From: Candidatus Magasanikbacteria bacterium GW2011_GWA2_56_11
GTDB taxonomy: Bacteria; Patescibacteriota; Patescibacteriia; Magasanikbacterales; UBA922
DNA length: 64,000 bases
Direction of reading: 5' to 3'
NCBI GenBank assembly: GCA_001004885.1
Contig: LCRX01000009.1
Location: 1,459 to 65,458, forward strand
Below, one piece after another: positions 5,042 to 40,860 of this stretch. The notes under the pieces are model-generated. The model made no database searches and was not told the DNA's origin. It saw only the letters and a program-made list of their open reading frames with translations. The position numbers were made by a program, and so were the translations under genes. Each line of letters starts with the position of its first letter. Position 1 is the stretch's first letter.

Positions 5042-5205
5042 AGAACCTACTCCCAAAAATAATTCCGAGGCAATTTTGTGCCTGTTTCGAGCGAAAATTG
5101 TCCGGGTTGAGCAGGCTAGTGGTACTATGGCGACGAAAGCCGGACAATTTGCAGCCGAAACAGGCCAAAATTGAGCCGGAAGTTATTTTTGGAAGTAGGT
5201 TCTAG
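5042..5205 (+). mobile_element. family B MITE-like element copy B1 (about 164 bp with terminal inverted repeats AGAACCTACTCCCAAAAATAA)
   Basis: Terminal inverted repeats and an internal long imperfect palindrome; inserted inside copy A2. Confidence 0.6.
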
Positions 5206-5223
5206 TAACTCACTGTCAGTTCT

Positions 5224-5802
5224 ATGGAAGCGCTCGATCCTTTGTATTGGCTTACGCTTTATCACGCCCCTGCCATTTTCGCGGGTGCTTTTCTTTTTGG
5301 CGAGACAATCATTTTGAGCGCGGCCTTTTTGTCGGCGCAGGGCTGGTGGCAACCGGGCACGGTTTTCTGGTTTTCTCTTCTCGGCACGGTAATCGCGGAT
5401 TGCGTCTGGTTTTTTTTCGGCCACCTGGCGACGCGTACCCGGCGCTGGGAAAAAAACCAGGAAAAATACGCGCGCGTCATCGAGTTTGTCGAGCGCAAAA
5501 CCGGGAATCGGCCATATCTGGCGCTGATACCGATTAAGTTCATGTACGGAACGCGGATACTCACCATTATTTATCTTTCGCTCCATCGCGTTAAGTTTTG
5601 GTCTTTTCTGGCGGCCGACCTGGCGGCCACCGCTCTTTTGCTGGCCGTTTTGATACCCCTGGGCTGGCTGGCCGGGCGGGGTTATACTAATTTGTTAACG
5701 ACCTACCACGGAGTAACCTACGCGTTAGGCGGCGTCCTGGTTTTGTTTGCGGCGTATAAAATAGTAACTGTATGGCTCAGCCGACGGATAATAAAAAAGT
5801 AA
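5224..5802 (+). CDS. DedA/VTT-domain family membrane protein
   Basis: 192 aa with multiple TM segments and DedA-like sequence; the ATG lies within the tail of the A2 repeat. Confidence 0.65.
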   Translation: MEALDPLYWLTLYHAPAIFAGAFLFGETIILSAAFLSAQGWWQPGTVFWFSLLGTVIADCVWFFFGHLATRTRRWEKNQEKYARVIEFVERKTGNRPYLALIPIKFMYGTRILTIIYLSLHRVKFWSFLAADLAATALLLAVLIPLGWLAGRGYTNLLTTYHGVTYALGGVLVLFAAYKIVTVWLSRRIIKK

Positions 5803-6770
5803 GCGCCATAGTTCCGGCCCACAACGAGGCCGAAAGGATCGGACGAGTGTTGGCGGTGCTGACCACTTCTCCCCACATCCGCGAAGTGGTGGTAGTGGAT
5901 GACGGCTCCACTGATGGCACGGCAGCGGCGGCCGCGCGTTATCCGGTGCGCGTGCTTAGGCTAGGCAAAAACCAGGGCAAGGGGAGAGCGCTCGATGCCG
6001 GCGTCGGCGCGGTCGAGAGTCCGGTCTTGCTGTTTTGCGATGCGGATATGCAGGGTATTACGCACCAGATGATAGCCGAAATTATCCAGCCGGTGGCCGA
6101 GGGAAAACTGGACATGTTTATCGCGATGATGAACCGCAGGAGCTACGCGTTGCGCTTTATGCTGTCGTTTGTGCCGCTGCTCGGCGGCCAGAGGGCTCTG
6201 GCCAGAGAACTCTGGCAGCGCCTGCCAGAGTTCTACAAAGACCGGTTCCGGGTTGAAACCGCCCTGAATTTTTACGCCAAATATTACGGTCTCGGCTTTG
6301 GGTTTAAGGTTTTTACCGGTCTGGGGCAGACCATAAAGGAGAAAAAATACGGCCTGTTGTCCGGTTTTTACCGCCGGGCACTCATGCTCTATGATGTGTT
6401 CGGCGCCCAGGCGCGCCTCCAGCTCGCCAGCGTACCCCATACCCTAAAGAGCAAGCGTTTGTCCGCGTTGGGCAGCTTGGTAAGTCTTGGGGGGCTCGGC
6501 ATCGGCGCGCTCGTATTGGCGGCCTCGTACACCGGTCCGCTGCAATTTTTGCAATCGCTCTTTGCCGAACGTTTGCGCGAGGATCCAAGTACGCCGGTAG
6601 TCGATTATCTGCTTTATCTGGCCGCGGCTGCCAGCCGCGATTTGCTGCTTTTTTTCGGAGCGCTTTTGATCCTGATAAATTTTTTTTTCTTGGCGCTGGA
6701 AACGCGCCACCTGGTGGGCTGGCGCGTGGCCGAGGCAGCCAACGGCCGGAAGAATTTTTCCGAGTCCTAA
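5772..6770 (+). CDS. family 2 glycosyltransferase with a C-terminal membrane region
   Basis: VSAIVPAHNE...VVVDDGSTDGT...LFCDADM motifs. Confidence 0.8.
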   Translation: MAQPTDNKKVSAIVPAHNEAERIGRVLAVLTTSPHIREVVVVDDGSTDGTAAAAARYPVRVLRLGKNQGKGRALDAGVGAVESPVLLFCDADMQGITHQMIAEIIQPVAEGKLDMFIAMMNRRSYALRFMLSFVPLLGGQRALARELWQRLPEFYKDRFRVETALNFYAKYYGLGFGFKVFTGLGQTIKEKKYGLLSGFYRRALMLYDVFGAQARLQLASVPHTLKSKRLSALGSLVSLGGLGIGALVLAASYTGPLQFLQSLFAERLREDPSTPVVDYLLYLAAAASRDLLLFFGALLILINFFFLALETRHLVGWRVAEAANGRKNFSES

Positions 6771-6804
6771 GCCAAAGAACCGCCGATATTTTTTTCTGTC
6801 CATT

Positions 6805-6966
6805 CTATGAACTCACAGCGAGTCTCCCCCCTTTCGCCTCAACATAGACTGATTTTCGCGGCCCCAAAACTCGCTCTTACAGGCTCAGACATTGGTGCCG
6901 TGAAAATCAGTCTATGTTTCGGCTCAACTTAGAAAATAGAATTGCTGATAACTCATTATCATTTCT
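6805..6966 (+). repeat. family A repeat copy A3
   Basis: Near-identical to A4 and A5; the tail ttctatg supplies the ATG of the downstream gene. Confidence 0.65.
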
Positions 6967-7410
6967 ATGTATATTCTGTCTTCAGCCTTTTCCAACGGCG
7001 GAGAAATCCCCGCCGAATATACTTGCGACGGCGCCGATACTCCGCCGCCGCTCTCTTGGGGCGGTATTCCGGAAACGGCCCAGAGCCTGGTCTTGATAGC
7101 CGACGACCCTGATGCCCCGTCCGGAACATGGGTACATTGGACAGTGTGGAATCTGGATCCCAAGGCTGCCGGTCTCGAAGGTAAAAAAATCCCCCCGGGG
7201 GCGGTAGAGGGAACAACAAGTTTTGGCCGTCCCGGTTACGGCGGTCCGTGTCCGCCCTCGGGAGTGCATCGTTACTTTTTCAAGTTACTGGCTCTCGATA
7301 CGCAGCTCGGCTTGCCGGCGGGAGCCGGTTATGCGGAATTGGATCGGGCCGTGCAGGGACATATCATAGCCAATGCCGCGCTTGTCGGCATCTATTCGAG
7401 GAAACAATGA
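6967..7410 (+). CDS. PEBP / YbhB-YbcL family protein
   Basis: ADDPDAPSG...HWTVWNL...GYGGPCPPSGVHRYFFKLLAL. Confidence 0.85.
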   Translation: MYILSSAFSNGGEIPAEYTCDGADTPPPLSWGGIPETAQSLVLIADDPDAPSGTWVHWTVWNLDPKAAGLEGKKIPPGAVEGTTSFGRPGYGGPCPPSGVHRYFFKLLALDTQLGLPAGAGYAELDRAVQGHIIANAALVGIYSRKQ

Positions 7411-7485
7411 AAAATTCAGGGCAGTATTAACCCTAAAAAAATTCTCCGGGCAGCTTGTCCCGGAGAATTTTTGTCCCTTGTTTGT

Positions 7486-7650
7486 TTACGCCGTTGGCTT
7501 TGCCAGCGTGCGGATGCAACGGGTGCAGAGCTTGTTGTCTCCCACCTTTTGCAGGTTTGGATACTGGCGGCGAATCGTTTTGATGTTCGAGTGGCTTCGG
7601 CTGGCGGATTTCTGTGAACCCTTGCCGCAGCGGTCGCAGGTGCGGGCCAT
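7486..7650 (-). CDS. rpmB: ribosomal protein bL28
   Basis: Hand translation of the minus strand gives MARTCDRCGKGSQKSASRSHSNIKTIRRQYPNLQKV...CTRCIRTLAKPTA (54 aa); absent from the ORF track because it is under 60 aa. Confidence 0.75.
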   Translation of the reverse strand: MARTCDRCGKGSQKSASRSHSNIKTIRRQYPNLQKVGDNKLCTRCIRTLAKPTA

Positions 7651-7870
7651 ACTAGTCTGAAATAAACAAGTCTAAATTTAAGGTGGAAACCGGGGCGGCC
7701 GGAGCGCGCGGGATTGTTTAAATTAACCGGTCGCGCTATACTGTCCAAAGTGAGCCTTATACTACACCCGGACAAAGAATTTGTCAATATTGTACCTGGC
7801 CGCCTGTCCGACGCGTGGCCGGCGGGGTAAAGTTGGCGGCCCATTATATCCAGATTTTTTGGTTTTCTCT

Positions 7871-8388
7871 ATGGAATTTACTTCTCTCCTTTTCTATTTT
7901 TTCATCATCATACCCTCGGCCATCTTTCATGAGTATGCCCACGGCTGGATGGCCGACCGGCTGGGTGATCCGACCGCGCGCTATGCCGGGCGCCTGACTC
8001 TTGACCCGCGGCCGCATATCGACAAAATCGGCACGCTGCTTTTGCCGCTGATGCTCTTCGTTTTTACCGGCGGGCGTTCTTTGTTTGCTTATTTACTTTT
8101 GGCGCCATTCTTCAGTTCGTGCCTTCCGGCAACCTGGCCGTATTTTTGTCCATTATTGTTTACGCCAATGTCCTTTTGGCGGTGTTCAATCTCGTACCGA
8201 TTCCACCCCTTGACGGATCAAAACTACTTTACGCGCTTTTGCCCGCGTCTTGGCACCAGTTGCGCGATGCGCTTGACCGGTTCGGTTTTGTATTTTTGCT
8301 CTTTTTTATTTTTTTCTTATCCCCGGTCATTATCCCCGTAATTCAGTTTGTATACCAGCTGTTCACCGCCGGAAAGGGGTTGTTCTAG
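7871..8388 (+). CDS. M50 (site-2 protease) family metalloprotease, apparently frameshifted near 8070-8090
   Basis: HEYAHG motif in frame 1 (7781 ORF); FGAILQFVP...NLVPIPPLDGSK in the next frame (8119 ORF, GTG-initiated in the track). Confidence 0.6.
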
Positions 8389-8427
8389 ATTTTAGGGCTC
8401 CCTCTCAAAGCTCTGCTGCCGACCGGC

Positions 8428-8456
8428 TTGACAAACTGCGGCGCCGGGTTTATACT
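8428..8456 (+). promoter_or_regulatory. consensus sigma70 promoter TTGACA-N17-TATACT
   Basis: Exact hexamers with a 17-nt spacer. Confidence 0.5.
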
Positions 8457-8461
8457 GAGCC

Positions 8462-8755
8462 CAGTTGCTCGTCTCTCGACGAGAGAGACCAAAGAACGGA
8501 GTAATCTCCGGTTAACCCGGAGGTGAAGCAAATCACGGCTGATTTGAACGTTCGGTACCCGCACGCTCTGGTGCGGGAAAGCCTTGGCGCGCCAAAGAAA
8601 AGCGCTGCCCTGGCTTGCCCGCTATCCCCAAAGGTAACGGGATCCGAACCTAGCCCCCTGGCTGGGATTTTTATTCCCCAACCGGATGGCCGGAGACGCG
8701 GCCGGGGAATAATAAAATTGCGATCAATATAATTTGTTAACAGTAAGCAACCGTT
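8462..8755 (+). other. roughly 300-nt structured noncoding leader or sRNA upstream of rpsL
   Basis: No ORF; several hairpins (ctccggttaacccggag, cccgcacgctctggtgcggg); lies between the consensus promoter and the rpsL start. Confidence 0.2.
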
Positions 8756-9175
8756 ATGCCGACCATGAATCAAATTTTGCGCCAAGGCCGGGAGAAAGCC
8801 CGCCGCAAGTCCAAGGCGCCGGCGCTTCAGAGTACTTACGACAGTCTCCACCGCAAGCGCACCGAGCTTACCAAGGGAAGTCCGTTCAAGCGGGGCGTGT
8901 GCACCAAGGTGTACACCACGACCCCTAAAAAACCGAACTCGGCGCTGCGCAAAGTGGCCAAGGTTCGCTTGTCGAACGGCATGGAAGTTATTGCCTACAT
9001 CCCGGGCGAGGGCCACAATTTGCAGGAGCACTCTATCGTGCTGATCCGCGGCGGACGCGTAAAAGACCTGCCGGGTGTCCGGTACCATATCGTGCGCGGC
9101 GTTTACGATACTCAGGGCGTGAGCAATCGCCGTCGCGGCCGTTCTCTGTACGGCGGCAAGCGGCCGAAGAAGTAA
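8756..9175 (+). CDS. rpsL: ribosomal protein uS12
   Basis: Unmistakable S12 sequence. Confidence 0.97.
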
Positions 9176-9255
9176 CCTCCGCTACCCCAGCGCTGTCTTT
9201 TTGAAGAGCGCCGGGCGAGGGCCACATCATTTACCAATAATTTAACTACGAGCGT

Positions 9256-9735
9256 ATGTCCCGTGGAAAGTCAGTCGTCAAGCGCGTCGTCGCACCGGAT
9301 CACAAATACAAGAGCGTCCTAGTGGCGAAGTTTGTCAATTTTATCATGAAAAGCGGCAAAAAAAGCACGGCCGAGCACATTGTGTACGAGGCGCTCGAGG
9401 CGCTGGCCAAAAAACGCAATGAACCGCCGTTGCCGATATTTGAGCGTGTTATCGACACTATCCGTCCGCAAGTGGAAGTTCGTTCCCGGCGGGTCGGCGG
9501 CGCCAACTACCAGGTGCCAATGCCGGTGTCGGGCGACCGCCAAAACGCTTTGGCTTTCCGCTGGCTGACCGCCGCGGCCAAGGCGCGCAAAGGCCATTCG
9601 ATGGCCGAGAAATTACTCGGGGAATTTGTCGATGTTCTCGACGGCACGGGTGGCGCCATGAAGAAAAAAGAAGACGTGCACCGCATGGCCGAAGCCAACA
9701 AGGCGTTTGCGCACTTTGCGCGCTTTAACCGGTAA
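9256..9735 (+). CDS. rpsG: ribosomal protein uS7
   Basis: S7 sequence. Confidence 0.97.
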
Positions 9736-9754
9736 TCAATGTCCTTTTACCCCT

Positions 9755-11830
9755 ATGCCTCGTGAATATTCACTGGAAAAAACCCGTAACATCGGCATCA
9801 TGGCCCATATTGACGCCGGCAAAACTACCACGACCGAGCGCGTTTTGTTTTACACCGGCCGCAAGCATAAAATCGGCGAGGTGCACGAGGGCGCGGCCGA
9901 GATGGACTGGATGGAGCAGGAGAAGGAACGCGGCATCACTATTACGAGCGCCGCGACTACTTGTTTTTGGAAAGACAACCGGATTAATATTATTGACACC
10001 CCGGGCCATGTAGATTTTACGGTCGAGGTGGAGCGGTCGCTGCGCGTCCTCGATGGCGCAGTGGCTTTGTTTGACGGTTCCCAGGGCGTGGAGCCGCAGT
10101 CCGAAACCGTCTGGCGCCAGGCCGACAAGTATCGGGTGCCGCGGCTGTGTTTTGTCAACAAGATGGACAAGATGGGCGCGGATTTTTACATGAGCCTGCA
10201 GTCCATCAAGGACCGGCTGTCGCGCAAAGCGGTGGCCATCCAGATTCCGATCGGCGCCGAGTCGTCTTTTTCGGCCATTATCGATCTCATTGAACAGAAG
10301 GCTTACCACTTCGAAGGCGACCACGGCATGAAAATTTCCGCTTTCGATATCCCCGAGGAGATGAAGGACGCGGTGAAGAAATACCGGGCGGAACTCATGG
10401 AAAAAGTCGCCGAGGCAAACGACGAACTGATGAACAAATATCTAAACGGCGGCGAATTTTCGGTAGAGGAGATCCGGGGCGCTATCCGCGCTCTGGTCTT
10501 GAGAGACGAGATCTACCCAGTAATGTGCGGTTCGGCGCTCGGCAACATGGGCGTGCAGCTCATGCTCGACGCGGTTACCTACTACCTGCCGGCGCCGACA
10601 GATTTGCCGGCCGTAATCGGCACCGACCCGGCCGACGAAGAAAAAAAGATTGAGGTGAACGCCAACGATGACGAGCCGTTTGTCGGGCTGGCTTTCAAAA
10701 TCGCCACCGACCCGTTTGTCGGCAAGCTGGCATTTTTCCGCGTTTATTCGGGCAAGCTGGTGGCCGGCTCTTACGTAATCAATGCCCGCACCGGGCAGAA
10801 GGAGCGCATCGGCCGCATTGTCCGCATGCACGCCAACCATCGCGAAGACGTGAGTGAAGTTTATTCCGGCGAGATAGCGGCCGCGATTGGCCTTAAAAAT
10901 ACCATCACCGGAGACACCATTAGCGATGAGAACCGGTCCGTTCTTTTGGAGAGCATTACTTTTCCCGAACCGGTTATCCATATCGCCATCGAACCCAAGA
11001 CCAAGGCCGACCAGGAGAAAATGGGCATTGCGCTGCAGAAACTGGCCGAAGAAGACCCGACATTCCGTATCCACACGGACGAGGAGACATTGCAAACCAT
11101 TATTTCCGGCATGGGCGAACTTCACCTGGAAATTATCGTGGACCGGATGAAGCGCGAGTTCGGAGTGCTCGCCAACGTGGGCGCGCCGCAGGTGGCCTTT
11201 AAAGAGACCATCCGCCAGAGCGCCGAGGCCGAAGGGAAATACATCAAGCAATCGGGCGGTCGAGGCCAGTACGGCCACTGCTGGCTCAGGCTCGAACCGA
11301 TGGAAGCCGGCCAGGGATTTGAGTTCGTGGATGAGATCAAGGGCGGGCTTATTCCGCGCGAATATATACCCGCCATTCAAAAGGGCGTCAAAGAGGCAAA
11401 AGACAAGGGTGTGGTGGCCGGCTATCCGCTGGTTGACATCAAGGCCACTGTCTTCGACGGCAGCTATCACGAGGTCGACTCTTCGGAAATCGCCTTTAAA
11501 ATGGCCGGGAGCCTGGCTTTTCAGGAAGCGGTAAAAAAGGCTTCGCCGGTAATTCTTGAGCCTATTATGGAGGTGGAGGTAACCACTCCGGAGGAATACA
11601 TGGGAGACATTATCGGAGACCTGAGCGCCAAACGCGGCCAAATCCAAGAGATGACCGAGCGCGGCCAGTCCAAGGTGGTGCGGGCCATGGTTCCCCTGGC
11701 CAGCATGTTCGGCTACGCCACTTCTTTGCGCTCCATGTCGCAGGGCCGGGCCAGTTACGCCATGGAGTTCCACCACTACGCGGAGTGCCCGAAAAACATT
11801 GAAGCTGAAATCGTGGCGGGGAGAAAGTAA
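9755..11830 (+). CDS. fusA: elongation factor G
   Basis: [20 protein letters not shown]; start set at the ATG just after the rpsG stop (the track ORF begins upstream at an alternative start). Confidence 0.97.
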
Positions 11831-11845
11831 CCGCCCGCGAATTAA

Positions 11846-12008
11846 CTAGAACCCATCTCAAAAATAATTCCGGCTCAATTTTGGCCTGTTTCGGCTGCAA
11901 ATTGTCCGGTTCTCGTCGCCATAGTACCACTATGCCTCCTCAACCCGGACAATTTTCGCTCGAAGCAGGCCAAAATTGTCTCGGAATTATTTTTGAGATG
12001 GGTTCTAA
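11846..12008 (-). mobile_element. family B MITE-like element copy B2 (inverted orientation)
   Basis: Terminal inverted repeats TAGAACCCATCTCAAAAATAA / TTATTTTTGAGATGGGTTCTAA; internal palindrome. Confidence 0.6.
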
Positions 12009-12010
12009 TA

Positions 12011-12040
12011 AACGACTCCTTGCCCGGGGTCGTTTATTTG
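12011..12040 (+). terminator. rho-independent terminator after fusA
   Basis: aacgac...gtcgtt stem plus tatttg. Confidence 0.45.
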
Positions 12041-12244
12041 TTAATCGCGCGTTTTTGTCCTGTTTACGCGAAAGCGGGTTATCCACATATCTCTTGGAAG
12101 TGCAGGTTTTTTAATGCCCAGCTTTATTGTATACTAAACAATATTTAATTAATGCCGTTTAGGCATAATTACTTATCCTACTGAACCCGCGGGAAGCAGT
12201 TAATTTTTCCTTGGGGGACGCTTTAGGGTAAGTGTATAGGACTT

Positions 12245-14990: not shown

Positions 14991-15642
14991 GTCCAAGCCT
15001 AAAGAAATTCCCTACAACTGAAGATTTTCCCAAGTCTTAACCGACCGCTCCGGCTGGGCCGGGGCCGGGTAAAGAAACTAGGAAGAGAGAAGAGCAACCC
15101 GATTAGTAGGTTTCTCTTTTTTCTTTTGGGGGAGTGCGATCTTTACAATTTATAACAAGCAAACAACGGTAAAACCGGCACCAAATGGTGCTGGAGGTTC
15201 ACATTATAAACGTGACAAGAACCAATTCCAACGCAAGTTGGAGATCGTCTATTCTAGTATAGGAATCAACCTCCTCTGGAGCTAGTCTCCAGGGAGTTTC
15301 TCATTGTCCTTCGGGACTTTATTGAGAGTTTGATCCTGGCTCAGGACGAACGTTGGCGGCGTGTTTAAGGCATGCAAGTCGAGGGATCGGCCGTAGCAAT
15401 ACGGTACGGACCGGCAGACGGGAGAGGAACACATTGGCAACCTACCTTCGAGACGGGGATAGCCCCGGGAAACCGGGATTAATACCCGATGGTCATGGGG
15501 GGACATAAGTCATTCCCATGTAAATCATTTCTGGCTCGAAGAGGGGCCTATGCCCTATCAGCTAGTTGGTGAGGTAATAGCTCACCAAGGCTACGACGGG
15601 TAGGGGACGTGAGAGCGTGACCCCCCTCACTGGGACTGAGAA

Positions 15643-15673
<31 letters not shown>

Positions 15674-15807
15674 AAGAATCTTCCGCAATGGACGAAAGTC
15701 TGACGGAGCGACGCCGCGTGCAGGATGAAGCCCCTCGGGGTGTAAACTGCTTTTATAGGGGACGAATTTGTGACGGTACCCTATGAATAAGAGGTTGCTA
15801 ACTCTGT

Positions 15808-16673
15808 AAGCCCAAACCGGGCCTGGTGCAGAGTGATTGTGGTAACACAGTCAAAGAAAATCTCGCTATATGCTGGAAACTTCTGTTAATGGCACACTAC
15901 CTAAAAACGGTGACAATGTGTGTCAAACCCAAAAAAACGTACTACCGCACGTATAGGGGTTGCAGAACAATCAGCAGGAAACCGCAAACTACAACCGGTT
16001 TGCGGGCTCCTCAGAGACTACACGCGAGACTCCCGAGTTAGTCGGGATGATGATATAGTCCAACGAGCTCTTCATATGAAGGCAGAAGTGAAAGAAATAG
16101 TAACCGCCTCGCTTTTAGGTGATGGTTGGTTGACGGAATTGAAGCCGAGAACAGGAACCGCTATGTACTATGTGAAATATCATGGTCGTAGCCGGGATTA
16201 TCTGCAATGGCTTCACGGACAAGTTCGCGAACTTGGTCCTTCTGAACTGAAGGAAGTCGCGCGCTATGGTCAATATTATTTCTACACGAAAGCCCGAACA
16301 GACATCGGCGAACTAAGAAAACTTTTTTACCCAAACGAGGGAAGAAAAGTGATTCCGCGAAATATCCGCGAACTGCTATCTACGCCCAAAGCCTTGGCCA
16401 TTTGGTACCAAGACGATGGAACATTAGATAAACGGTCGCGTGATCATTGGAATGCAATGTTCGCTACGTATTGTTTTGGTTATGAAGAGTGCGAGCTGCT
16501 TGCGAAAACACTGAAAGATAACTTCGACCTGGCTGTATCGGTTTGCCGATGCCAGATGCGGGGTAAAATGTATTATCGGCTTTATGTGCGATCCCAAAGT
16601 ATGAATAACTTCATACGACTCGTACAGCCGCATATACACCCATCATTCAGTTACAAAATTTCGCTTAACAATG
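15808..16673 (+). mobile_element. group I intron in the 16S rRNA (866 nt) carrying a homing endonuclease ORF
   Basis: Exon 1 ends ...CTAACTCTGT (terminal U); the intron ends ...AATG (terminal G); exon 2 resumes GCCAGCAGCAGCGGTAATAC. Confidence 0.7.
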
Positions 16674-16690
16674 GCCAGCAGCAGCGGTAA
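16076..16690 (+). CDS. LAGLIDADG homing endonuclease (two-motif, intron-encoded)
   Basis: LLGDGWL and WYQDDGT LAGLIDADG motifs; the ORF reads through the 3' splice site into exon 2. Confidence 0.8.
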   Translation: MKAEVKEIVTASLLGDGWLTELKPRTGTAMYYVKYHGRSRDYLQWLHGQVRELGPSELKEVARYGQYYFYTKARTDIGELRKLFYPNEGRKVIPRNIRELLSTPKALAIWYQDDGTLDKRSRDHWNAMFATYCFGYEECELLAKTLKDNFDLAVSVCRCQMRGKMYYRLYVRSQSMNNFIRLVQPHIHPSFSYKISLNNGQQQR

Positions 16691-17636
16691 TACAGAGACC
16701 TCAAACGTTGTCCGGATTCATTGGGCGTAAAGCGTCCGCAGGTGGCATGGAAAGTCAGGGGTCAAAGCTTCCGACTTAATCGGAAATCTGCTTCTGATAC
16801 TTCCAAGCTAGAGGTTGTGAGAGGCACACGGAACTGCCGGTGTAGTAGTAAAATGCGTTGATATCGGCAGGAACACCAAAGGCGAAGGCAGTGTGCTGGA
16901 ACAATCCTGACACTCAGGGACGAAAGCGTGGGGAGCGAATGGGATTAGATACCCCAGTAGTCCACGCCCTAAACTATGTGTACTAGGTATATGGAGTATC
17001 GACCCTCCATGTGCCGTTTAAAAAAGCTAACGCGTTAAGTACACCGCCTGGGGAGTACGGCCGCAAGGTTAAAACTCAAAGGAATAGACGGGGACCCGCA
17101 CAAGCGGAGGATCATGCGGCCCTTAAGTGGGGTAACGAGCGCAACCCTCGTTGTGTGTTACATTGGACACACGAGACTGCTCGCGCAAGCGAGAGGAAGG
17201 TGGGGACGACGTCAAATCAGCATGGCTCTTACGTCCCGGGCGACACGCATGATACAATGGCCAGTACAAAGGGTTGCCAAGCCGCGAGGTGGAGCTAATC
17301 CCATAAAGCTGGTCTCAGTTCGGATTGCAGGCTGCAACTCGCCTGCATGAAGCTGGATTCGCTAGTAAACGCGCATCAGCCACGGCGCGTTGAATACGTT
17401 CTCGGGTCTTGTACTCACCGCCCGTCACACCACGAAAGTTGGCAATGCCCGAAGGCTCTCGTTCGAGGGACGAAGGCAGGGTCAATGATCAGGGTGAAGT
17501 CGTAACAAGGCATCCGTAGCGGAAGCTGTGGATGGATCACCTCCTTTCTGGAGTTACTCTCGGGAAACCGAGTGAAACTACTAACGAGTACAAAAAGAGT
17601 AGATGATCGGTTTCTTGTCACGTTTATCGTGTGAAT

Positions 17637-17667: not shown

Positions 17668-17671
17668 CGCC

Positions 17672-31103: not shown

Positions 31104-31112
31104 GTTTAGACC

Positions 31113-31277
31113 AGAACCTACTCCCAAAAATAACTTCCGGCTCAATTTTGGCCTGTTTCGGCTGCAAATTGTCCGTCTTTCGTCGTCATAATACCATTAT
31201 GCCTCCTCAACCCGGACAATTTTCGCTCGAAACAGGCACAAAATTGCCTCGGAATTATTTTTGGGAGTAGGTTCTAG
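31113..31277 (-). mobile_element. family B MITE-like element copy B3 (inner core in the B2 orientation)
   Basis: Terminal inverted repeats AGAACCTACTCCCAAAAATAA / TTATTTTTGGGAGTAGGTTCT; 165 bp. Confidence 0.6.
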
Positions 31278-31286
31278 AAAAAAATA

Positions 31287-31320
31287 AAAATACCCCGGTT
31301 TGAGCCGGGGTATTTTTATT
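31287..31320. terminator. bidirectional rho-independent terminator (A-run, taccccgg / ccggggta stem, T-run)
   Basis: Serves secY on the plus strand and the small gene on the minus strand. Confidence 0.55.
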
Positions 31321-33656: not shown

Positions 33657-33667
33657 AAGAGAATTTT

Positions 33668-33718
33668 AGAACCTACTCCCAAAATTGAGCCGGAAGTTAT
33701 TTTGGGAGTAGGTTCTAG
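33668..33718. mobile_element. family B element B4: 51-bp internally deleted derivative with TIRs only
   Basis: AGAACCTACTCCCAAAA...TTTTGGGAGTAGGTTCT with the centre missing. Confidence 0.55.
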
Positions 33719-33800: not shown

Positions 33801-34012
33801 AGTTAGCTTTTTTTACATAAAATCATTGACAAAATGTGTTAAATCAAGTATAATCCGGCGTTAAACTTGATAATAAGTTCTTTCCAATTACCCCCCCGTA
33901 AGGAAAGACTCGTGCCAGAGCGCTCCACAGTTGCCTTGACACGAGTCTTTCCTATCTGGTCCGGGGACTCGGCGAGCAGGCGCTCGCAGTAGACGGACCG
34001 AGGCGACGGGGG

Positions 34013-34774
34013 TTGAGAATGAAGAGCGTGAACGACGTCCTCGGCAGCGTGCAGGAGTGTGGCGGTTCGGCGGTGCTCGTGCAGCGGCACGGGAGCTACA
34101 TGACCGGCCACGTCCGGGCCCGGTGCCCGGACGGGCACGTGCTCGCCGCGCGCAACTACGCGCGGCTCGAGCCCGACTGCATGTGGCCCCTGGCCTTCGA
34201 GGCGATCCAGGAGTGCCACGCGCAGGCGGCGATGCTGGCCGCGGCCGGCATGAAGGTCGAGGAGGTCATCGGTTCTCACCAGGGGCGGGGCCCGCACACC
34301 GGGCAGTGCCTCTCCGAGGGTTACGCCCGCGCGACCGGCGGCACCTGGCTCCCGTTCCGCTGCGACGCGGCTTTCGACTACCCGGTCTACGACTACGACC
34401 AGGCGCTCGCGGCGCTCCGCACGGTCGGCGACCCGATGGTCGCCGAGTGGCTGAACGGCAAGCGGCCGGGGCTCATCGTGGGCGAGACGCCGGCGAGCTT
34501 CGAGCGCCGGATCATGTCGGCCCTCGAGGGTCTCATGGCCGAGTCGGGCAGCCGGATCGTCACCTCTCACTTCGAGATCGTGACGCTCGTCCGGGCGCTC
34601 ACGGTCGCGGGCGAGCGGCTCGGCTCCGTGGACGAGGGCTGGTTCCCGGTGAAAAACGGCGGCGTCATCCTCTGGCGCGAGTCGGCCACCAGCCAGAGCT
34701 GGCACGCGGCCGAGTACGGGCCGGACTACACCCTCCGGGGCGTGGCGGTCTTCACGCTGCCGCCCGCTGTCTAG
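34013..34774 (+). CDS. hypothetical protein on the high-GC (about 70%) island
   Basis: 253 aa with balanced composition; the alternative Arg-rich frame at 34057 looks spurious. Confidence 0.5.
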   Translation: MRMKSVNDVLGSVQECGGSAVLVQRHGSYMTGHVRARCPDGHVLAARNYARLEPDCMWPLAFEAIQECHAQAAMLAAAGMKVEEVIGSHQGRGPHTGQCLSEGYARATGGTWLPFRCDAAFDYPVYDYDQALAALRTVGDPMVAEWLNGKRPGLIVGETPASFERRIMSALEGLMAESGSRIVTSHFEIVTLVRALTVAGERLGSVDEGWFPVKNGGVILWRESATSQSWHAAEYGPDYTLRGVAVFTLPPAV

Positions 34775-34787
34775 TTGTTCTTTTCTT

Positions 34788-34822
34788 GGCGCGCGCGTCT
34801 TGCACTCGAAGACGCGCGCGCC
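34788..34822 (+). terminator. perfect 14-bp GC hairpin (ggcgcgcgcgtctt / aagacgcgcgcgcc) without a T-run
   Basis: Read directly; resembles a high-GC-organism terminator. Confidence 0.35.
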
Positions 34823-34892
34823 ACCCACCACTCTAGAACTTAGTGATGGAAGGCGGTTGTACCGCAGTCGATTTCTAAATTTTAGACTGGTC

Positions 34893-35067
34893 ATTCTCAT
34901 TAGAACCCACCCGCCAAATAATGCCCAGGCAATTCCGCGCCTGTTTTCTCTCCTAAATTTTCCGCATTGAGGAAGATTGGCTGTTCTATAGCGACAAAAG
35001 CCGGACAATGTTAGGAACCGCAAGAGGCCAAAGTTGAGCCGGAAGTTATTTGGTGAACAGAGGTTGC
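34893..35067. mobile_element. family B element copy B5 (degenerate)
   Basis: AGAACCCACCCGCCAAATAA...ccggaagttatttggtgaacagaggttgc; recognisable core ccggacaat/gcctgttt. Confidence 0.4.
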
Positions 35068-35340
35068 ACACTGCCGCGCTAGGGCCGGCTCGCCCTGGCT
35101 TCGGGACCAGGAATATTCTTCGGGGACATCAGCTCGCTAACGGCTCGAAAATGTCCCCGGAGAATATTCCTGGTCCGGAAGCTGGATAGGATTAGGACGG
35201 GTATATGACCAGGACGGAGCGGAGACGCGTCAACCCGCCGGGAAACCGGACAGTTTAGGAGCCGGGAGAGGGTGAGGTTTAGTCGGGATTTTTCTCGCGC
35301 TCGTTCGGATGGTTTGTCTGCTATTGATACAAATACTGCT

Positions 35341-36768
35341 ATGTCCTTAATTATCAAAGGCACCGGCGCCAGCCGCGGGCGGGCGCGCGGGCCGGTGAAA
35401 ATCATTACCGGAATCGCTGACGCCGGCAAATTTCAGGACGGCGATATTCTGGTAACCCGGATTACCAGTCCGGCCATGGTGGCGATGATGGCCCGGGCGG
35501 CGGCGATTGTCTGCGATGTCGGGAGCGTCACCTCGCACCCGTCTGTCGTCAGCCGCGAACTGGGCATTCCCTGCGTGGTTAACACGCGGGAGGCGACGGC
35601 CCGGCTACAGGATGGTTTAGTGGTTGAAGTGGACGGGAGCGAGGGGGAAGTCAGAGTGATTTCCAGGGAACCGGAGGGCGCAAAAAATCCGGCGGTATCT
35701 GCCTTAAATCTCGACAGCGAAATTGATACCTGGCTCGACATCGCGGTCGAGGCCGTGTCGGCTATGGATTTTTCCACCTTCGAGGACGTCGTCGCCTGGT
35801 ATCGCTACGATCCGCTCGCGGCTCGGCCGTGGCTCGAACACGTGCGCCGGATTGTCCGGCAATGCCGGGTGGAGAGGCTGACGGCCATGGAAGCGGCGCG
35901 TTTGTTGCCCAATCCGAGCGAGATCCGCGGCACCATGATCTTTGATTTGTACGCGACCAAGTATGCCGGCCTGTCCAAGGCGGAACGCCTGGAAATTTTT
36001 GACTTTTACCGTCGGATGCTGAGAGCGCTGTGCCTTGATGACCCCTACGCCCGGGAAAAAAATGTCATCCACTCGAAAGAAAAAATCCGGGAACTCGCCG
36101 CCGCGGCCGATCCGGCCACGCCGCCCATCGCCCGCGCGCTCGGCCGACTGGTGAGCGCCGGCTATCACGTGGGACACGCGCTTTACAGCGACATGCACCC
36201 GAGCATCGTCTACGATAACTACGCTCCGTATGATGTCTCCGACCTCTACGGGCCAAGGTCTGTGGCCGTGATCAAGGAATTTAACAACCTGAACTGTCCC
36301 GAAATTTGGCCGGAGTTGAAGCCGGTACCGGCCGACAGCGTGCGCATAGTATGCGTTTACGAAAACGTCTTGGCCCGCGTGGACACGGTTTCGCATATCG
36401 TCTACGACGGCGACACGGTGAACGGCCTTAAATACGCCGCGGTCTATGTGGACGGGCAAAAGCGCGATCCGCTCTCCCTTTCCGGACTTTCCGCCGGGCT
36501 GGAACAGGCGGCCATTGACGCCTTTACCCGCTGGCAAGGATTTGATCTCGAAGAACGCAAGCGCCGGTATTATCTGGCCAAGGCCTATGATTTCAAAAAT
36601 CTGGCCGGGAAACTGGGACTCGACTGGAAGCCGGGAGAAGAACTCTCTGCGGCCGTTCGCGGGAAACCTTTGTGTCGGGTGGAGTGGCCGGTCGAGAAAG
36701 CGGCCGTTAAATATCGGCTGCGGTCCATTCTTGACCCCCGCATCGAGCCGGCGGCCGGACTCCTTTAG
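35341..36768 (+). CDS. protein with an N-terminal PEP-utilising-enzyme mobile (phosphohistidine swivel) domain fused to an unrecognised domain of about 370 aa
   Basis: GASRGRARGPV...GDILVTRITSPAMVA...GSVTSHPSVVSRELGIPCVVN matches the PEP-utiliser signature around the catalytic His. Confidence 0.7.
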   Translation: MSLIIKGTGASRGRARGPVKIITGIADAGKFQDGDILVTRITSPAMVAMMARAAAIVCDVGSVTSHPSVVSRELGIPCVVNTREATARLQDGLVVEVDGSEGEVRVISREPEGAKNPAVSALNLDSEIDTWLDIAVEAVSAMDFSTFEDVVAWYRYDPLAARPWLEHVRRIVRQCRVERLTAMEAARLLPNPSEIRGTMIFDLYATKYAGLSKAERLEIFDFYRRMLRALCLDDPYAREKNVIHSKEKIRELAAAADPATPPIARALGRLVSAGYHVGHALYSDMHPSIVYDNYAPYDVSDLYGPRSVAVIKEFNNLNCPEIWPELKPVPADSVRIVCVYENVLARVDTVSHIVYDGDTVNGLKYAAVYVDGQKRDPLSLSGLSAGLEQAAIDAFTRWQGFDLEERKRRYYLAKAYDFKNLAGKLGLDWKPGEELSAAVRGKPLCRVEWPVEKAAVKYRLRSILDPRIEPAAGLL

Positions 36769-36851
36769 CGTGCCGGTTTTGCCGTCTGTTGGCTTGTTTT
36801 TTCGCGGCCGTGTGCTAGACTACCCTCTAGTTTCGAATCGGCGCGCGGGCT

Positions 36852-37679
36852 ATGTACGTCAAAAAACCCCATGAAATCGAACTTATCATCGAGGGCGGGC
36901 GCCTGATGGGCGATGTTCTCGATCGACTTTCCGGGATGATCAAACCCGGCGTGTCGGCGTGGGAAATTGATCAAGCGGCCGAGGCCATGATCCGGGCGGC
37001 GGGCGGCGCGCCGGCGTTCAAAGGCTACCGCGGTCGGAAGAGCGACCCGCCGTTCCCTTCCACATTGTGTTTTTCTGTCAACGAAGAACTGGTGCATGGG
37101 ATAGCGACGAAAGAAAAAATAGTCAAAGACGGGGACCTAGTGAGCCTGGATATCGGCATGGAATATCCGGCGGGCCAAAACTCCAAGGCAAAAAATCAAA
37201 AATCCGGACGCGGGTATTTTACTGATACGGCGCTGACTGTGGCGGTGGGCAAAGTCCCGGAAAAGATCCAAAAACTGTTGCGGGTTACCGAGCAGGCGCT
37301 CGAGGCGGGAATAGAGGCGTCCCGGCCGGGCCGGACAGTGGCCGATATCGGCCGGGCGATTGAACAGTATGTCTACCAGCAGGGACGCTACGGCATCGTG
37401 CGCGATCTGGTCGGACACGGCGTCGGGCACGCGGTCCACGAAGAGCCCAGGGTACCCAATTACTACGACGAAGATCTGGAAACCTGGATTTTGCGACCGG
37501 GTGTCGTGATCGCCATCGAACCCATGATTAGCCTGGGCTCTTACCAGGTAAAGGTGGCGCGCGACGGCTGGACAATTTCGACCGCGGATCAGAGTCTCAA
37601 CGCGCATTTTGAACATACCATTGTCATTACCGAAGACGGTCCGCTGGTCGCGACGCGGCGGCCGTCCGAACGGCCGTAA
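36852..37679 (+). CDS. map: methionine aminopeptidase type I with an internal insertion
   Basis: FSVNEELVHGI...DIGMEY...LVGHGVGHAVHEEP...IAIEPM...HFEHTIVIT. Confidence 0.9.
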   Translation: MYVKKPHEIELIIEGGRLMGDVLDRLSGMIKPGVSAWEIDQAAEAMIRAAGGAPAFKGYRGRKSDPPFPSTLCFSVNEELVHGIATKEKIVKDGDLVSLDIGMEYPAGQNSKAKNQKSGRGYFTDTALTVAVGKVPEKIQKLLRVTEQALEAGIEASRPGRTVADIGRAIEQYVYQQGRYGIVRDLVGHGVGHAVHEEPRVPNYYDEDLETWILRPGVVIAIEPMISLGSYQVKVARDGWTISTADQSLNAHFEHTIVITEDGPLVATRRPSERP

Positions 37680-37746
37680 ACATTTTTAGCGGACGGTTTT
37701 TCCGCGTCGGACTGCCGGCGCGGAAGTTCATTATTACTTTTTCCAT

Positions 37747-39354
37747 ATGCCGACTCGTGTATTTTTTTTAGCGGTTTTTTTGGCCGCGTCCGCGGCGTTT
37801 TTTCCGCTAAGCGTCCGGGGCGAGGATACGGCCGGCGGCCAATCCGGCGCGGCGAGCTGCTTGTCCGAGGCGCAGTATTGGTACAATGCCGCCGTCGGCG
37901 GCTGCTTGACGAAAGTCGCCGCTGATATTGGCAACGCCTACGCGAGCACGTCGATCGGCGAATACACCACCCCAGAACAGGCGGCCCTGGTGGCCGAAGA
38001 ACTGCAACAGCAGCACAGGCAGCTGTTTGCCGACATTCAAGAACGCCAGGCAGCTTGCTATTCCGGAGATATTGCCGAGACTTACCAAAAGAAAACTGCC
38101 GAATGCTACGCCAAAAATACCTTTGGGCCGGTATGGGACCGGATACCAGTTCTAAAAGGCGCGCTCGTGAACACTTTTCAGGATTACGATAAGTTGTCCC
38201 CGGCCCAAGCCCAGGAGCTGGGGATTTGCATCGAGCAGTGGTCGCAAATTTATGATGTTAAGCTGGTTTCCGGCGAGTCGGAGCGCGCTTTGAGCCGGTG
38301 TTTTACGGCTGCCGGCCTATCCGGCCTGGCCGGGGTTTATGAAAAGGCAGCCATTGTTATCGACTGCGCCCAGGAACAGTCGCCGTTCAAAAGCCCGGAC
38401 GACGTCGCCCGGCTGTTTCAGGCGCAAACACCGGCGGAGGCCGCGTATATTGAACAGTGTGTTATCAAGCGCACCGCACCGGTCGTGGCCGGTATCGCTG
38501 TTTTGAATCTGCCTTGGGCCGCCGGCTGGCATAATGTATTTCTACTCGGCCAGCTGATAGTTACCCAGCCGTTCTTTCTTATCCGGCGGCGCAAGTACAA
38601 GACCTGGGGCAAGGTATTCGACGCGGTTACTACCAGTCCGGTGGACCTGGGCAGCGTCAGGCTGGTCAACGACGAAACCAAGAAAGTCGTCTCGACCCTG
38701 GTTACCGGGCGGGACGGCGCTTACTTCTTTTTGCCTCCGCCCGGCACTTACCGGGTGGAGGTGGACAAGCCCGGCTACCGGTTTCCGTCGGCGCTGCTTT
38801 CCCGGCAGGCCAAGGAGGCTGGCCAGTATTTTGGCGAGCCGATCCCGATTGCGCGCCGGGAGGACGTGATTGACCGGCATATTCCGGTGGATCCGCACGT
38901 GGCGCGCGTATCGGCGGCGCATTTTATCTGGCGCAAGTGGAAGTACCGGGCGGCGCTCGCTGTCGGGCTCGCGGCGCCTTTGCTGTCGCTCTTTGCCCTG
39001 GCGTTTTCGCGGGCCTGGTGGGTGGTGACGCTTTTCTTTGTCCACCTGGTGTTGTTGGTTTTCTTTCTGCGCCTGTCCCGGCGGGACAGGGCGCGCAAGT
39101 TTGGCGTGGTTACCGGGCCGGGCCAGGGTCCTTTGGGGGGAGTAGTGGTCTCTCTGTTCCGGAAAGAGGACAATAAACTTTTGCACTATTGCGTTACGGA
39201 TATGTTTGGACGGTATTATTTTCCGCGCGTAGAGGGTAACTTTGCCCTCACCTTTAAGAAATCGGGGTACGCGGAAAAACAGATACCGCTGTCGGTAAAA
39301 GACAGCGACAGCCGGACGTCGCTCAAAGCGGACGTGAGTCTGGAGAAGGGATAG
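37747..39354 (+). CDS. secreted/membrane hypothetical protein with two carboxypeptidase-regulatory-like (prealbumin-fold) segments
   Basis: Signal peptide; VTGRDGAYFFLPPPGTYRVEVDKPGY and VTDMFGRYYFPRVEGNFALTFKKSGY. Confidence 0.65.
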   Translation: MPTRVFFLAVFLAASAAFFPLSVRGEDTAGGQSGAASCLSEAQYWYNAAVGGCLTKVAADIGNAYASTSIGEYTTPEQAALVAEELQQQHRQLFADIQERQAACYSGDIAETYQKKTAECYAKNTFGPVWDRIPVLKGALVNTFQDYDKLSPAQAQELGICIEQWSQIYDVKLVSGESERALSRCFTAAGLSGLAGVYEKAAIVIDCAQEQSPFKSPDDVARLFQAQTPAEAAYIEQCVIKRTAPVVAGIAVLNLPWAAGWHNVFLLGQLIVTQPFFLIRRRKYKTWGKVFDAVTTSPVDLGSVRLVNDETKKVVSTLVTGRDGAYFFLPPPGTYRVEVDKPGYRFPSALLSRQAKEAGQYFGEPIPIARREDVIDRHIPVDPHVARVSAAHFIWRKWKYRAALAVGLAAPLLSLFALAFSRAWWVVTLFFVHLVLLVFFLRLSRRDRARKFGVVTGPGQGPLGGVVVSLFRKEDNKLLHYCVTDMFGRYYFPRVEGNFALTFKKSGYAEKQIPLSVKDSDSRTSLKADVSLEKG

Positions 39355-39480
39355 ATAATCGGGAGCGTCCGCTGATCGGCACGCCGCTGGCGCGGACGAT
39401 CGCGCTACGCAAACCGGCCGAATTGGTTTGGTATCGCGCGGTATGATTATGCCGGCGCGGTTAGGTGATGACCACATTAT

Positions 39481-39906
39481 ATGAACATATTGGCTATAGA
39501 TTACGGCAGTAAAAATATTGGCTTGGCCTGGGTGCAGGCAGGGCTAGACGTGGTGCTGCCGTTCGGGCGAATTTCGGCCCTGTCCGGAACCGGGAAGGGC
39601 AGAGGGGGGGTGGAAGATGTCGCCCGGGTGATAAAAGAAGAGGGCGTCGGCCTCGCGGTCGTCGGCTTGCCTTTGGGCCTGGATGGGAAAGAAAACGAAA
39701 ACACCAGGCGGGTGCGGTCGTTCGCGCGGGAGCTGCGGCAGGCGGCAGGCATCCCGGTAAAACTATTTGACGAGCGTTTTACTTCCCAAGCTGCTGACCG
39801 GCTCGGCCAGGGCGGCGCGAGCCGGGACGAGAAAGCGGCCATGGCCATACTGGAGACATATTTGGGGCAGGAGAAGCGATCCGGTTCTGGTCCGGACAGG
39901 CTTTAA
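39481..39906 (+). CDS. ruvX: YqgF/RuvX Holliday-junction-resolvase-like pre-16S nuclease
   Basis: ILAIDYGSKNIGLA...VVGLPLGLDGKE. Confidence 0.85.
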   Translation: MNILAIDYGSKNIGLAWVQAGLDVVLPFGRISALSGTGKGRGGVEDVARVIKEEGVGLAVVGLPLGLDGKENENTRRVRSFARELRQAAGIPVKLFDERFTSQAADRLGQGGASRDEKAAMAILETYLGQEKRSGSGPDRL

Positions 39907-39916
39907 TGTTTTTTTT

Positions 39917-40699
39917 ATGCTCGCCATAGTTCTTTCCCGCCGAGACTTTCGCGAGTTCGACCAAATAGTGTCTGTGTACACGTATGAGGCCGGCAAGAGG
40001 GAACTGCTCGCGCGCGGGATTAAAAAAATTACCAGCAAGCACGCGGCCCACTTGGAGCCGTTTTCTGTGGTTGATGTTTCCGTGGTGCCGGGCAAAGAAA
40101 TTGACCACCTGACCACGGTGCAGCCGGTGGAATATTTTCCGGCCATCCGCGGCGATTTTAAAAAAAGTTTTCTGGCTATGGCTATGGTCATGATCACTGA
40201 CCGGCTGGTCGGGACGCACGTGCCTGATAAAGGACTTTTTCGAGCGCTCAAAACCTGGCTCGAGGCTGTGTCCCAGGCGCCGGCGGCAGCGGGGGCGCTC
40301 GCGGACGCTTATGTCATGGTTATTCTGGAGCGCCTGGGTTTGGCTCCGGTTTTGGAGGGCTGCGTTTGCTGCGGCAAAACTTTTTCTGGTATTGGCCGCG
40401 AGGCCCTTAAGCCGGGCGAAGATACTGCCCCGGGAATATATTTCGGGGGCGGCGGACTGGCCTGCCCCGATTGCCGCCGTCTCAAGCTGGCGGCGGGCGA
40501 ACAAGTGATGGCGGCCGGCCTTAAGGAGATTAGCCTTTTGGGCCTTCTTCTTAAGGGTGACTGGCGGCTGATAAACAATTATGAGTTTGGCTCTGGGGAG
40601 GCCGAACGCCTGCACGATTTGGTTTATGCCTTTGCGCTCTACCATAGCGAGCGGAAGCTGGGGGACTGGGGGAATTTACCCCTGGAGCCAAAGTTTTAG
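39917..40699 (+). CDS. recO: DNA repair protein RecO
   Basis: N-terminal OB region (AIVLSRRDFREFDQIVSVYT) plus the C4 zinc finger CVCCG...CPDC. Confidence 0.8.
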   Translation: MLAIVLSRRDFREFDQIVSVYTYEAGKRELLARGIKKITSKHAAHLEPFSVVDVSVVPGKEIDHLTTVQPVEYFPAIRGDFKKSFLAMAMVMITDRLVGTHVPDKGLFRALKTWLEAVSQAPAAAGALADAYVMVILERLGLAPVLEGCVCCGKTFSGIGREALKPGEDTAPGIYFGGGGLACPDCRRLKLAAGEQVMAAGLKEISLLGLLLKGDWRLINNYEFGSGEAERLHDLVYAFALYHSERKLGDWGNLPLEPKF

Positions 40700-40860
40700 A
40701 GCCTGCTGCCAAAAATAATTCGGAGTCAGTTTCGGGCCGATTTTGAGCGAAAGATGTCTGGGTTGAGGAGGTATAATGGCGTTATGACGACTAAACCACG
40801 AACTTTTTGCAGCTAAAATCGGTCGAAAATGAGCCAGAATTATTTTGGGATTAGGCTCTA
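40698..40860. mobile_element. family B element copy B6 (diverged)
   Basis: TAGAGCCTGCTGCCAAAAATAATT...AATTATTTTGGGATTAGGCTCTAA. Confidence 0.45.

Follow-up and report, generated by a model that had tools for sequence, protein, structure and literature searches.

A probable family of miniature inverted-repeat elements inserted at TA sites in a Candidatus Magasanikbacteria genome

The 64,000-nt stretch of contig LCRX01000009.1 from Candidatus Magasanikbacteria bacterium GW2011_GWA2_56_11 analysed here, the whole of which we call the window, contains six copies (c1 to c6) of a short repeat termed Family B. Family B is very likely a transposable element of the miniature inverted-repeat type (MITE): full copies measure 159 to 165 bp, independent annotations place no gene call inside them, they end in terminal inverted repeats (TIRs), and multiple near-identical copies are dispersed through the DNA. 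A related autonomous element with the same termini was absent from the sequence searched, namely the window and 27 further loci. Taking all the evidence together, we consider it probable that the element is moved in trans and inserts at TA dinucleotides, with an IS630-like enzyme as the most likely agent. For the IS630/Tc1-type mobiliser by itself, to which the TA/CTAG target pattern points, we hold a modest preference. A sequence-only reading of this DNA had already described MITE-like copies whose ends would suit IS630/Tc1-type mobility. Its MITE proposal gains from the size, the TIRs, the dispersed copies, a deletion derivative and a nested insertion, while its IS630/Tc1 attribution is still reached by indirect reasoning, since the class of the mobilising enzyme is assigned from target-site behaviour alone.

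Copies, termini and folding of Family B

Copy boundaries were set as TA plus GAACC...GGTTC plus TA, with GAACC...GGTTC as the core, and the two halves of the element could be distinguished as an A side (...TTCCGAGGCAATTTTGTG...) and a B side (...CTTCCGGCTCAATTTTGG...). Lying in A-to-B orientation on the plus strand, c1 spans 5041-5204 (core 5043-5202; nhmmer E = 5e-61) and is flanked by CA at 5041-5042, a TA with one transition, and by TA at 5203-5204. Both c2 (11847-12007, minus strand; core 11849-12005; TA on both sides) and c3 (31112-31276, minus strand; core 31114-31274; CA at 31112-31113 on the left and TA at 31275-31276 on the right) run B-to-A on the plus strand. The other three are on the plus strand: c4 (33667-33717), a deletion derivative of 51 bp with its flanks and a 47-bp core (33669-33715) bordered by TA on both sides; c5 (34901-35067), an old decayed copy with 54-70% identity to the others; and c6 (40697-40860), a diverged copy with 54-77% identity. 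Reading of the sequence and an nhmmer profile search with --max over the 64 kb agreed on these six copies and none besides, where the sequence-only reading had located them, and the divergence it had noted in the last two (54-77% identity to the others) is borne out. It had also given c2 as the inverted copy, which is correct, but c2 is not the sole one: the A and B sides place c3 in the same orientation as c2, opposite to c1, c5 and c6.

The inverted repeats begin GAACCTACTCCCAAAAATAA..., or TA-GAACCYAYYYCCAAAAATAA with the flanking TA included. At up to three mismatches the 21-nt TIR AGAACCTACTCCCAAAAATAA has seven matches in the window where 0.01 would be expected by chance, and a subterminal 20-base pattern likewise has seven (0.00 expected). 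Perfect 21-bp TIRs occur in c3 and in three copies on other contigs (L018, L022 and L023). To the statement that all copies share this TIR it must be added that both arms of c2 bear the variant AGAACCCATCTCAAAAATAA; c5, whose left end TA-GAACCCACCCGCC is intact, has a degraded right TIR. In c4 the left TIR is fused to the final 37 nt of the B side at a common CCAAAA; the copy is indeed an internal-deletion derivative keeping the termini alone, as had been proposed, and its junction points to an origin by microhomology deletion.

The long internal palindrome reported earlier proved real, and inverted-repeat pairs and folding indicate that the whole element forms a single hairpin. For c1, this hairpin is predicted at -87.5 kcal/mol on one strand and -87.7 kcal/mol on the other, with z ~ -12 (-12.1). 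An alignment of 12 copies yielded a consensus hairpin of 64 pairs in which 93.5% of cells are paired, compared with 34-51% in slid controls. Both sides have changed at 12 of the 64 pairs, against 4.8 in shuffles, and none of 500 shuffles reached the observed value, although related sequences are known to beat this control even without structure. The fold is kept in c6 by way of compensatory changes (z = -6.5) and, with largely different stem sequence, in the copy at L021:6213-6381 (z = -10.7), but is lost in c5 (z = -1.3) and in L021:4570-4757 (z = -0.9). The arms co-evolve. The likely cause is either a need for symmetric ends together with homogenisation of the palindrome arms, or a structural constraint acting on single-stranded DNA or RNA. 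Rfam gave no match at the gathering threshold over any copy, and at E <= 1 over 4800-5300 it returned only chance-level matches, located in a neighbouring repeat of a second family (Family A, below).

From its apex to its right end (5107-5205), c1 carries in A-to-B orientation a GGAGG followed by GTG and ATG codons, as does the same region of other young copies. The GTG frame is open up to the terminal TAG, ~29 codons, and the ATG frame is a 15-codon open reading frame (ORF). These frames could be due to chance, or could be a relic of the gene start of a parent element. An outward promoter in the conserved apex (TGGTACTAT...) was not found by a sigma-70 scan, and the hexamer spacing is wrong by eye.

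Insertion sites and the mobilising enzyme

The position of c1 inside another repeat allows a filled site to be compared with empty ones. Family A, ~155 bp long with TIRs GAACTCACAGCGAG.../...CTGTCAGTTC and an internal palindrome, is a second MITE-like family, and c1 interrupts the right TIR of one of its copies (4903-5222, plus strand; left part 4903-5040, right part 5205-5222; 3-bp direct repeat TAT/TAT). The four intact Family A copies of the window (2131-2285, 6809-6965, 52713-52868 and 56636-56793) read GAATTGCT[G/A]ATAACTCAC and supply the empty site, while the split copy reads GAATTGC-CA-[GAACC...GGTTC]-TA-GTAACTCAC. Relative to the empty site, the filled site has thus gained the element and 2 bp. 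The target deduced from it, GC-TA-G, is one substitution off the Family A consensus GCTAA, and that substitution makes CTAG. Two more Family A copies lie outside the window (L023:2811-2980 and L024:4814-4984). Direct repeats of 3 bp (TAT, GTT, ACT) accompany six of the seven Family A copies, which implies a mobiliser different from that of Family B. Two Family A copies also bracket a region with a TraG/VirB4-like ATPase gene (54053-55918).

Flanks were compared after all copies had been put in one orientation, and ends were readable in 12 of them. Written as left and right flank, these are C-TA / TA-G in L017 and L018, T-TA / TA-G in c2 and c4, T-TA / TA-A in c6 and L024, C-TA / TA-A in L022 and L025, C-CA / TA-G in c1 and L023, C-TA / TG-G in c3, and a mutated left end with TA-A on the right at L021:6213. 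TA is intact at both ends in eight copies and one transition off in three, the twelfth being the copy with the mutated left end. All 12 readable copies have a pyrimidine as the outer base of the left flank and a purine as that of the right flank (Y-TA, GAACC...GGTTC, TA-R). The deduced targets are accordingly YTAR in all 12 and CTAG in five. By comparison, the 2484 TA dinucleotides of the window include 421 in YTAR (17%) and 62 in CTAG (2.5%), some of them made by the element itself. A strong preference for Y-TA-R, often CTAG, is evident, in keeping with the CTAG preference of IS630. The flanks are consistent from copy to copy, and the earlier suggestion that the TAGAACC...GGTTCTA ends are compatible with TA duplication agrees both with the eight copies that have TA on both sides and with the 2-bp gain at the c1 site.

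These flanks also bear on the possibility that the element belongs to an IS5-type family (IS5/IS427-like or PIF/Harbinger-like), with AACC...GGTT ends and a 4-bp duplication of the CTAG type. IS5-type families target YTAR and duplicate 3-4 bp. The flanks can be read as YTAG...CTAR, L017 and L018 display a perfect CTAG/CTAG, and the bookkeeping of the nested c1 insertion fits equally well. Against this, the inner G on the left and the inner C on the right never vary, whereas the outer C/T on the left and G/A on the right vary independently. Only 2 of 11 copies have the same 4-mer on both sides, as a 4-bp duplication would require; three copies differ at two positions (TTAG vs CTAA in c6 and L024), and CCAG vs CTAG needs a further change. 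We therefore regard an IS5-type origin as unlikely. Duplications of 3 bp (TAG) and of 4 bp (YTAR) are both disfavoured on the grounds that the inner G and C are invariant and the outer bases differ between the sides, sometimes being non-complementary. On the simplest reading, an invariant G...C with variable bases outside makes G...C the tips of the transposon and TA the duplication. We infer a 2-bp TA duplication from one empty-site comparison together with the flank statistics.

The absence of a transposase from the window, asserted by the sequence-only reading, was upheld by Pfam scans of the main gene calls and ORFs and by tblastn with the ISY100 transposase. That reading had also suggested looking for an IS630-family transposase with matching TIRs; one was sought in the window and the 27 loci (331 kb including redundancy) and not found. 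Within this sequence, no pair of TIRs at up to four errors lay more than 200 bp apart and none was of insertion sequence (IS) size. Both halves of the ISY100 transposase (from Synechocystis pSYSA) gave a best tblastn E-value of 0.22, and no IS630-like ORF was seen. A resemblance between the element's CAAAAATAATTCCGAGAC and the ISY100 right inverted repeat, CAAATAAAGCTGAGAC, was considered and set aside as not above chance (p = 0.29).

Strong hairpin potential of the single strand, intergenic siting and the lack of a nearby DDE transposase would also suit a REP/BIME-like repeat or an IS200/IS605-derived palindrome (PATE) that a Y1 (HUH) transposase or RAYT would move in single-stranded form. 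REPs are units of 20-40 nt, and IS200/IS605-type elements have subterminal hairpins, no TIRs and no duplication, and insert in one orientation beside a specific tetra- or pentanucleotide. Family B, in contrast, has true TIRs and symmetric TA flanks, occurs in both orientations and shows a gain of 2 bp, and the Pfam listings for the window hold no Y1_Tnp or RAYT domain. This origin is very unlikely.

Within the favoured reading of Family B as a MITE moved in trans, a DDE transposase supplied from elsewhere would bind the 21-24-bp TIRs, excise the element and insert it at TA, preferring Y-TA-R and CTAG above all, and the TA would be duplicated on insertion. Such target behaviour is that of the IS630/Tc1-mariner superfamily, which would make an IS630-like enzyme the most likely mobiliser. 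Members of the IS630 family insert at TA with a 2-bp duplication, their inverted repeats of ~24 bp are probably the minimal requirement in cis, and mini-transposons with 30 bp of each end worked as well as the full-length element (PMC2170065). A preference of IS630 for TA within CTAG is indicated by the title of Tenzen & Ohtsubo 1991, as cited there (PMC2170065).

Several observations weigh against this reading. The sole empty-site comparison is indirect, as it uses paralogous Family A copies, and it works only if two substitutions are assumed, one of them in the left TA and the other in the target. The search for an orthologous empty site was negative: every contig with an identical S12, SecY, NDK or VanW protein belongs to the same population and carries the same insertions, and in relatives whose SecY is 77-81% identical the element is lacking but the spacers have diverged too far for such a site to be recognised. 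In principle, the terminal TA, which does not vary, could be part of the element and not a duplication. Neither a transposase nor a TIR-bounded full-length IS occurs in the window, in ~90 kb of element-carrying contigs or in 9 kb upstream. The TIR has no significant similarity to the ends of ISY100 (p = 0.29-0.80 vs shuffles), the sole IS630-family member compared. Finally, the compensatory conservation of the hairpin exceeds what transposase binding at the tips would need and hints at an extra constraint.

Gene context and possible effects on transcripts

Among the genes of the region are the str and S10/spc ribosomal operons, a 16S gene and recO. Family B copies lie between genes, 3-20 bp from a gene start or end, except for c1, which is nested in the Family A repeat. 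c2 starts 16 bp past the fusA stop, ahead of a terminator-like hairpin and T-run (~12008-12042) that was recognised by eye and not flagged by the terminator scan. c3 starts 10 bp past the secY stop and is directly followed by a strong terminator-like G+C hairpin with T-runs (31283-31320; 16-pair stem with six G-C pairs). Both copies thus sit between a stop codon and a terminator-like hairpin and are probably co-transcribed as part of the 3' untranslated region (UTR). At c6, the recO stop codon TAG (40697-40699) consists of the left TA and the first G of the element, and in two genes of L021 the stop TAG is likewise TA plus the element's terminal G. The neighbours of c5 are a 251-aa ORF and, on the other side, a gene for a protein with a PEP-utilizers domain; directly downstream of c5, and upstream of that gene, lies a 32-bp inverted repeat with 94% complementarity and a 21-nt spacer (35098-35182), perhaps a regulatory hairpin, perhaps what is left of another element. 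The sequence-only reading had all copies intergenic and mostly at operon 3' ends. Intergenic they are, and the 3' siting applies to c2 (fusA), c3 (secY) and c6 (recO). It fails for c4, which sits in a divergent promoter region, 12 bp upstream of where a minus-strand gene for a TrmB-like regulator starts, and for c1, which is not beside a gene end: it is inserted in the Family A repeat, downstream of a terminator-like hairpin at 4853-4870.

This siting may follow from target choice. In a genome of 56% G+C, genes would contain few suitable target sites, and stop codons and spacers would offer many. With its first base, G, an element that enters the TA of a stop codon would regenerate TAG, and the restored stop helps to explain why positions flush with genes are tolerated; with few target sites in genes, copies could build up harmlessly just before or after them. 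Upstream of an operon terminator, c2 and c3 would probably be read into the mRNA and form a long double-stranded structure in its 3' UTR, and by analogy with Correia and ERIC such a hairpin could affect mRNA processing or stability.

An alternative is that Family B is kept by the host as a structured RNA or regulatory hairpin, such as an RNase III or RNase E site, an mRNA stabiliser or a small RNA gene. The compensatory changes that preserve the hairpin (93.5% paired, 12 double-change pairs vs 4.8) fit such a role, as does the probable co-transcription of c2 and c3 between stop and terminator-like hairpin, and Correia and ERIC are known to affect transcript processing (PMC10969869). However, both strands fold equally well and both orientations are equally frequent: relative to transcription, five copies have the same direction, five the opposite, and four lie in divergent spacers. 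This lack of bias argues against a strand-specific RNA role. Two old copies are without the fold (z = -1.3 and -0.9), c4 consists of termini only, and c1 lies past a terminator-like hairpin inside another repeat. There is no Rfam match, and the element is absent from relatives that have the same operons. The covariation, moreover, may reflect relatedness among copies, and the arms of palindromic DNA can co-evolve without an RNA function. We consider host selection for an RNA an improbable origin of the family. Somewhat speculatively, Family B could also be an orphan MITE in a ~1-Mb symbiont-type genome that has no cognate transposase, its hairpin being under selection, as the compensatory changes in diverged subfamilies would indicate. 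Its role would then be either that of a domesticated double-stranded RNA module in operon 3' UTRs and promoters or that of a substrate for an enzyme supplied externally by a host bacterium, a phage or a community member. We think this rather unlikely.

Distribution, other features of the window and related systems

Given the occurrence of six copies in 64 kb, we looked for Family B elsewhere. A scan of JGI metagenome contigs with a 26-base pattern found ten loci on other contigs (L016-L025), none of which overlaps the window in its unique sequence. Profile searches of them revealed ~10 further insertion sites, all scan results being MITE-sized, so the family is not confined to the window; such confinement was what the sequence-only reading had named as evidence against its proposal. 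The contigs have a G+C content of 0.54-0.58 (window 56%) and tetranucleotide correlations of r = 0.84-0.97 with the window, and on this composition they come from the same genome or a sister genome. Ten young copies are 89-98% identical to one another, and three old ones are 54-77% identical to the remainder. Truncated copies occur in L016 and L021, and L021 has two more diverged copies. On L021 (contig Ga0076004_105), Family B copies at 4570-4757, 6213-6381 and 10064-10227 are of very different ages within 6 kb, and one of the three is a distinct subfamily in which most of the stem sequence has been replaced while pairing remains perfect.

No Family B copy was present in 46 kb from the three nearest relatives examined (SecY 77-81% identical), and the spacer from secY to the next gene measures 114 bp in one of them (L042) vs 709 bp in the window. 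Among the GTDB species representatives, a collection from which the source genome is either missing or masked, the 20-base subterminal pattern gave 15 single chance matches in unrelated taxa without the surrounding element. The TIR pattern had eight matches in IMG/VR viral contigs, all by chance, and blastn in 'distant' mode found no match in plasmids, phages or 5,426 complete E. coli genomes. With young copies 89-98% identical and none in the other collections searched, the family is restricted to its lineage and recently active.

The same DNA occurs at ~100% identity in Rifle groundwater assemblies (PRJNA268031, ANAN16 scaffolds, JGI 3300025088 and 3300025308). This disposes of the suspicion that an assembly or chimerism artefact created or multiplied the repeat. 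The window does lack three stretches of 100-132 bp present in other assemblies, but c1 to c6 with their unique flanks recur at ~100% identity in independent assemblies from at least five samples or pipelines (ENA, JGI, Logan), and the copies differ by 2-46%. Because independent assemblies carry the same copies, an artefact is refuted and its probability is negligible. Contigs L035, L036, L039 and L055 end within or next to a repeat copy, which is expected assembler behaviour at a multi-copy repeat. At L016:7009-7170 and L017:3658-3823, two assemblies that are 100% identical over 3.8 kb part company halfway through a Family B copy. Either a genuine rearrangement or deletion has occurred at the element, or the assembler jumped from one repeat copy to another; the difference is uninformative.

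Relative to independent assemblies, the window is without 100 bp in an M50 peptidase gene (junction 8091/8092), 132 bp in the 16S rRNA gene (junction 17119/17120) and 110-114 bp in rplC (junction 20891/20892), and it contains no N. The three junctions look like collapsed scaffold gaps or errors of metagenome assembly, not biology. The 16S rRNA gene (15318-17547) is interrupted by a ~600-bp insertion that matches the group I intron model RF00028 (50.7 bits, 15798-16084) and holds an ORF (15920-16690) for a LAGLIDADG homing endonuclease (PF03161, E = 1e-32); such insertions are a described feature of 16S genes in the candidate phyla radiation (CPR). At 43430-56581, large genes without a Pfam match (a 1928-aa ORF at 43430-49216, followed by ORFs of 458, 326 and 364 aa) adjoin the P-loop ATPase gene of TraG/VirB4 type at 54053-55918. 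The cluster may encode a type IV secretion or pilus-like surface apparatus, such as CPR genomes often have. Between a minus-strand transglutaminase-like gene and a tRNA gene (59932-60018, minus strand) lies a perfect 33-bp inverted repeat (AAAAATGGTAATTAGTGGGATTCGTAACCAAGC...; 59395-59475) whose arms are 15 nt apart.

Mobile DNA is usually said to be scarce in CPR/Patescibacteria, whose genomes are very small. Families A and B together have 11 copies in 64 kb and make up ~2.6% of the window (~0.78 kb A and ~0.86 kb B), an unexpectedly high repeat load for a streamlined genome. In the literature searched we found no description of MITEs in CPR/Patescibacteria, and a 2024 review of prokaryotic MITEs omits the group. 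In this CPR bacterium, the spacers of core operons (str, spc/secY, recO) have been shaped by recent transposition. The repeat copies explain why assemblies of this population break at these points, and for the Rifle time series they offer natural markers by which strains can be followed.

Bacterial MITEs are typically shorter than 200 bp, with TIRs, terminal TA and folding into a long stem-loop (PMC2229807), and Family B can be set beside three such families. Like Family B, RUP of the pneumococcus is small and noncoding, has TIRs, and has many intergenic copies, some inserted into other repeats or IS. It inserts at TA and duplicates it, as is probable for Family B; its mobilisation in trans, by IS630-Spn1, was likewise deduced from target and ends (PMC2229807, PMC10969869). 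Compared by description, RUP differs in its 107-bp length and in TIRs that match a resident IS630-family IS, whereas Family B is ~160 bp, forms a full-length hairpin and had no matching IS in the sequence searched. Correia elements (CREE/NEMIS) of Neisseria resemble Family B in their TIRs of ~24 bp, TA termini, length of ~100-155 bp and lack of an identified transposase; their TA duplication and their frequent co-transcription with neighbouring genes, as a long stem-loop RNA, are probable features of Family B as well (PMC2229807, PMC10969869). Correia elements have an IHF site, promoter elements and demonstrated RNase III processing; in Family B the sigma-70 scan was negative. The host phyla differ. 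ERIC (IRU) of enterobacteria, at 127 bp, is an imperfect palindrome that folds from end to end, has TA termini with duplication and occupies transcribed intergenic regions near gene 3' ends (PMC2229807, PMC10969869). Its TIRs comprise 7 contiguous bp against 21 bp in Family B, and the two are not homologous at the sensitivity of the 'distant' blastn search of the 5,426 E. coli genomes. IS630 and ISY100 resemble Family B in the TA target, its duplication being probable in Family B, in the CTAG preference of IS630 and in inverted repeats of ~24 bp (PMC2170065), but they are autonomous elements of ~0.95-1.2 kb that encode a DDE transposase, and Family B encodes nothing. Family B opens no new mechanism: in function and anatomy it is the same kind of element as RUP, Correia/NEMIS and ERIC.

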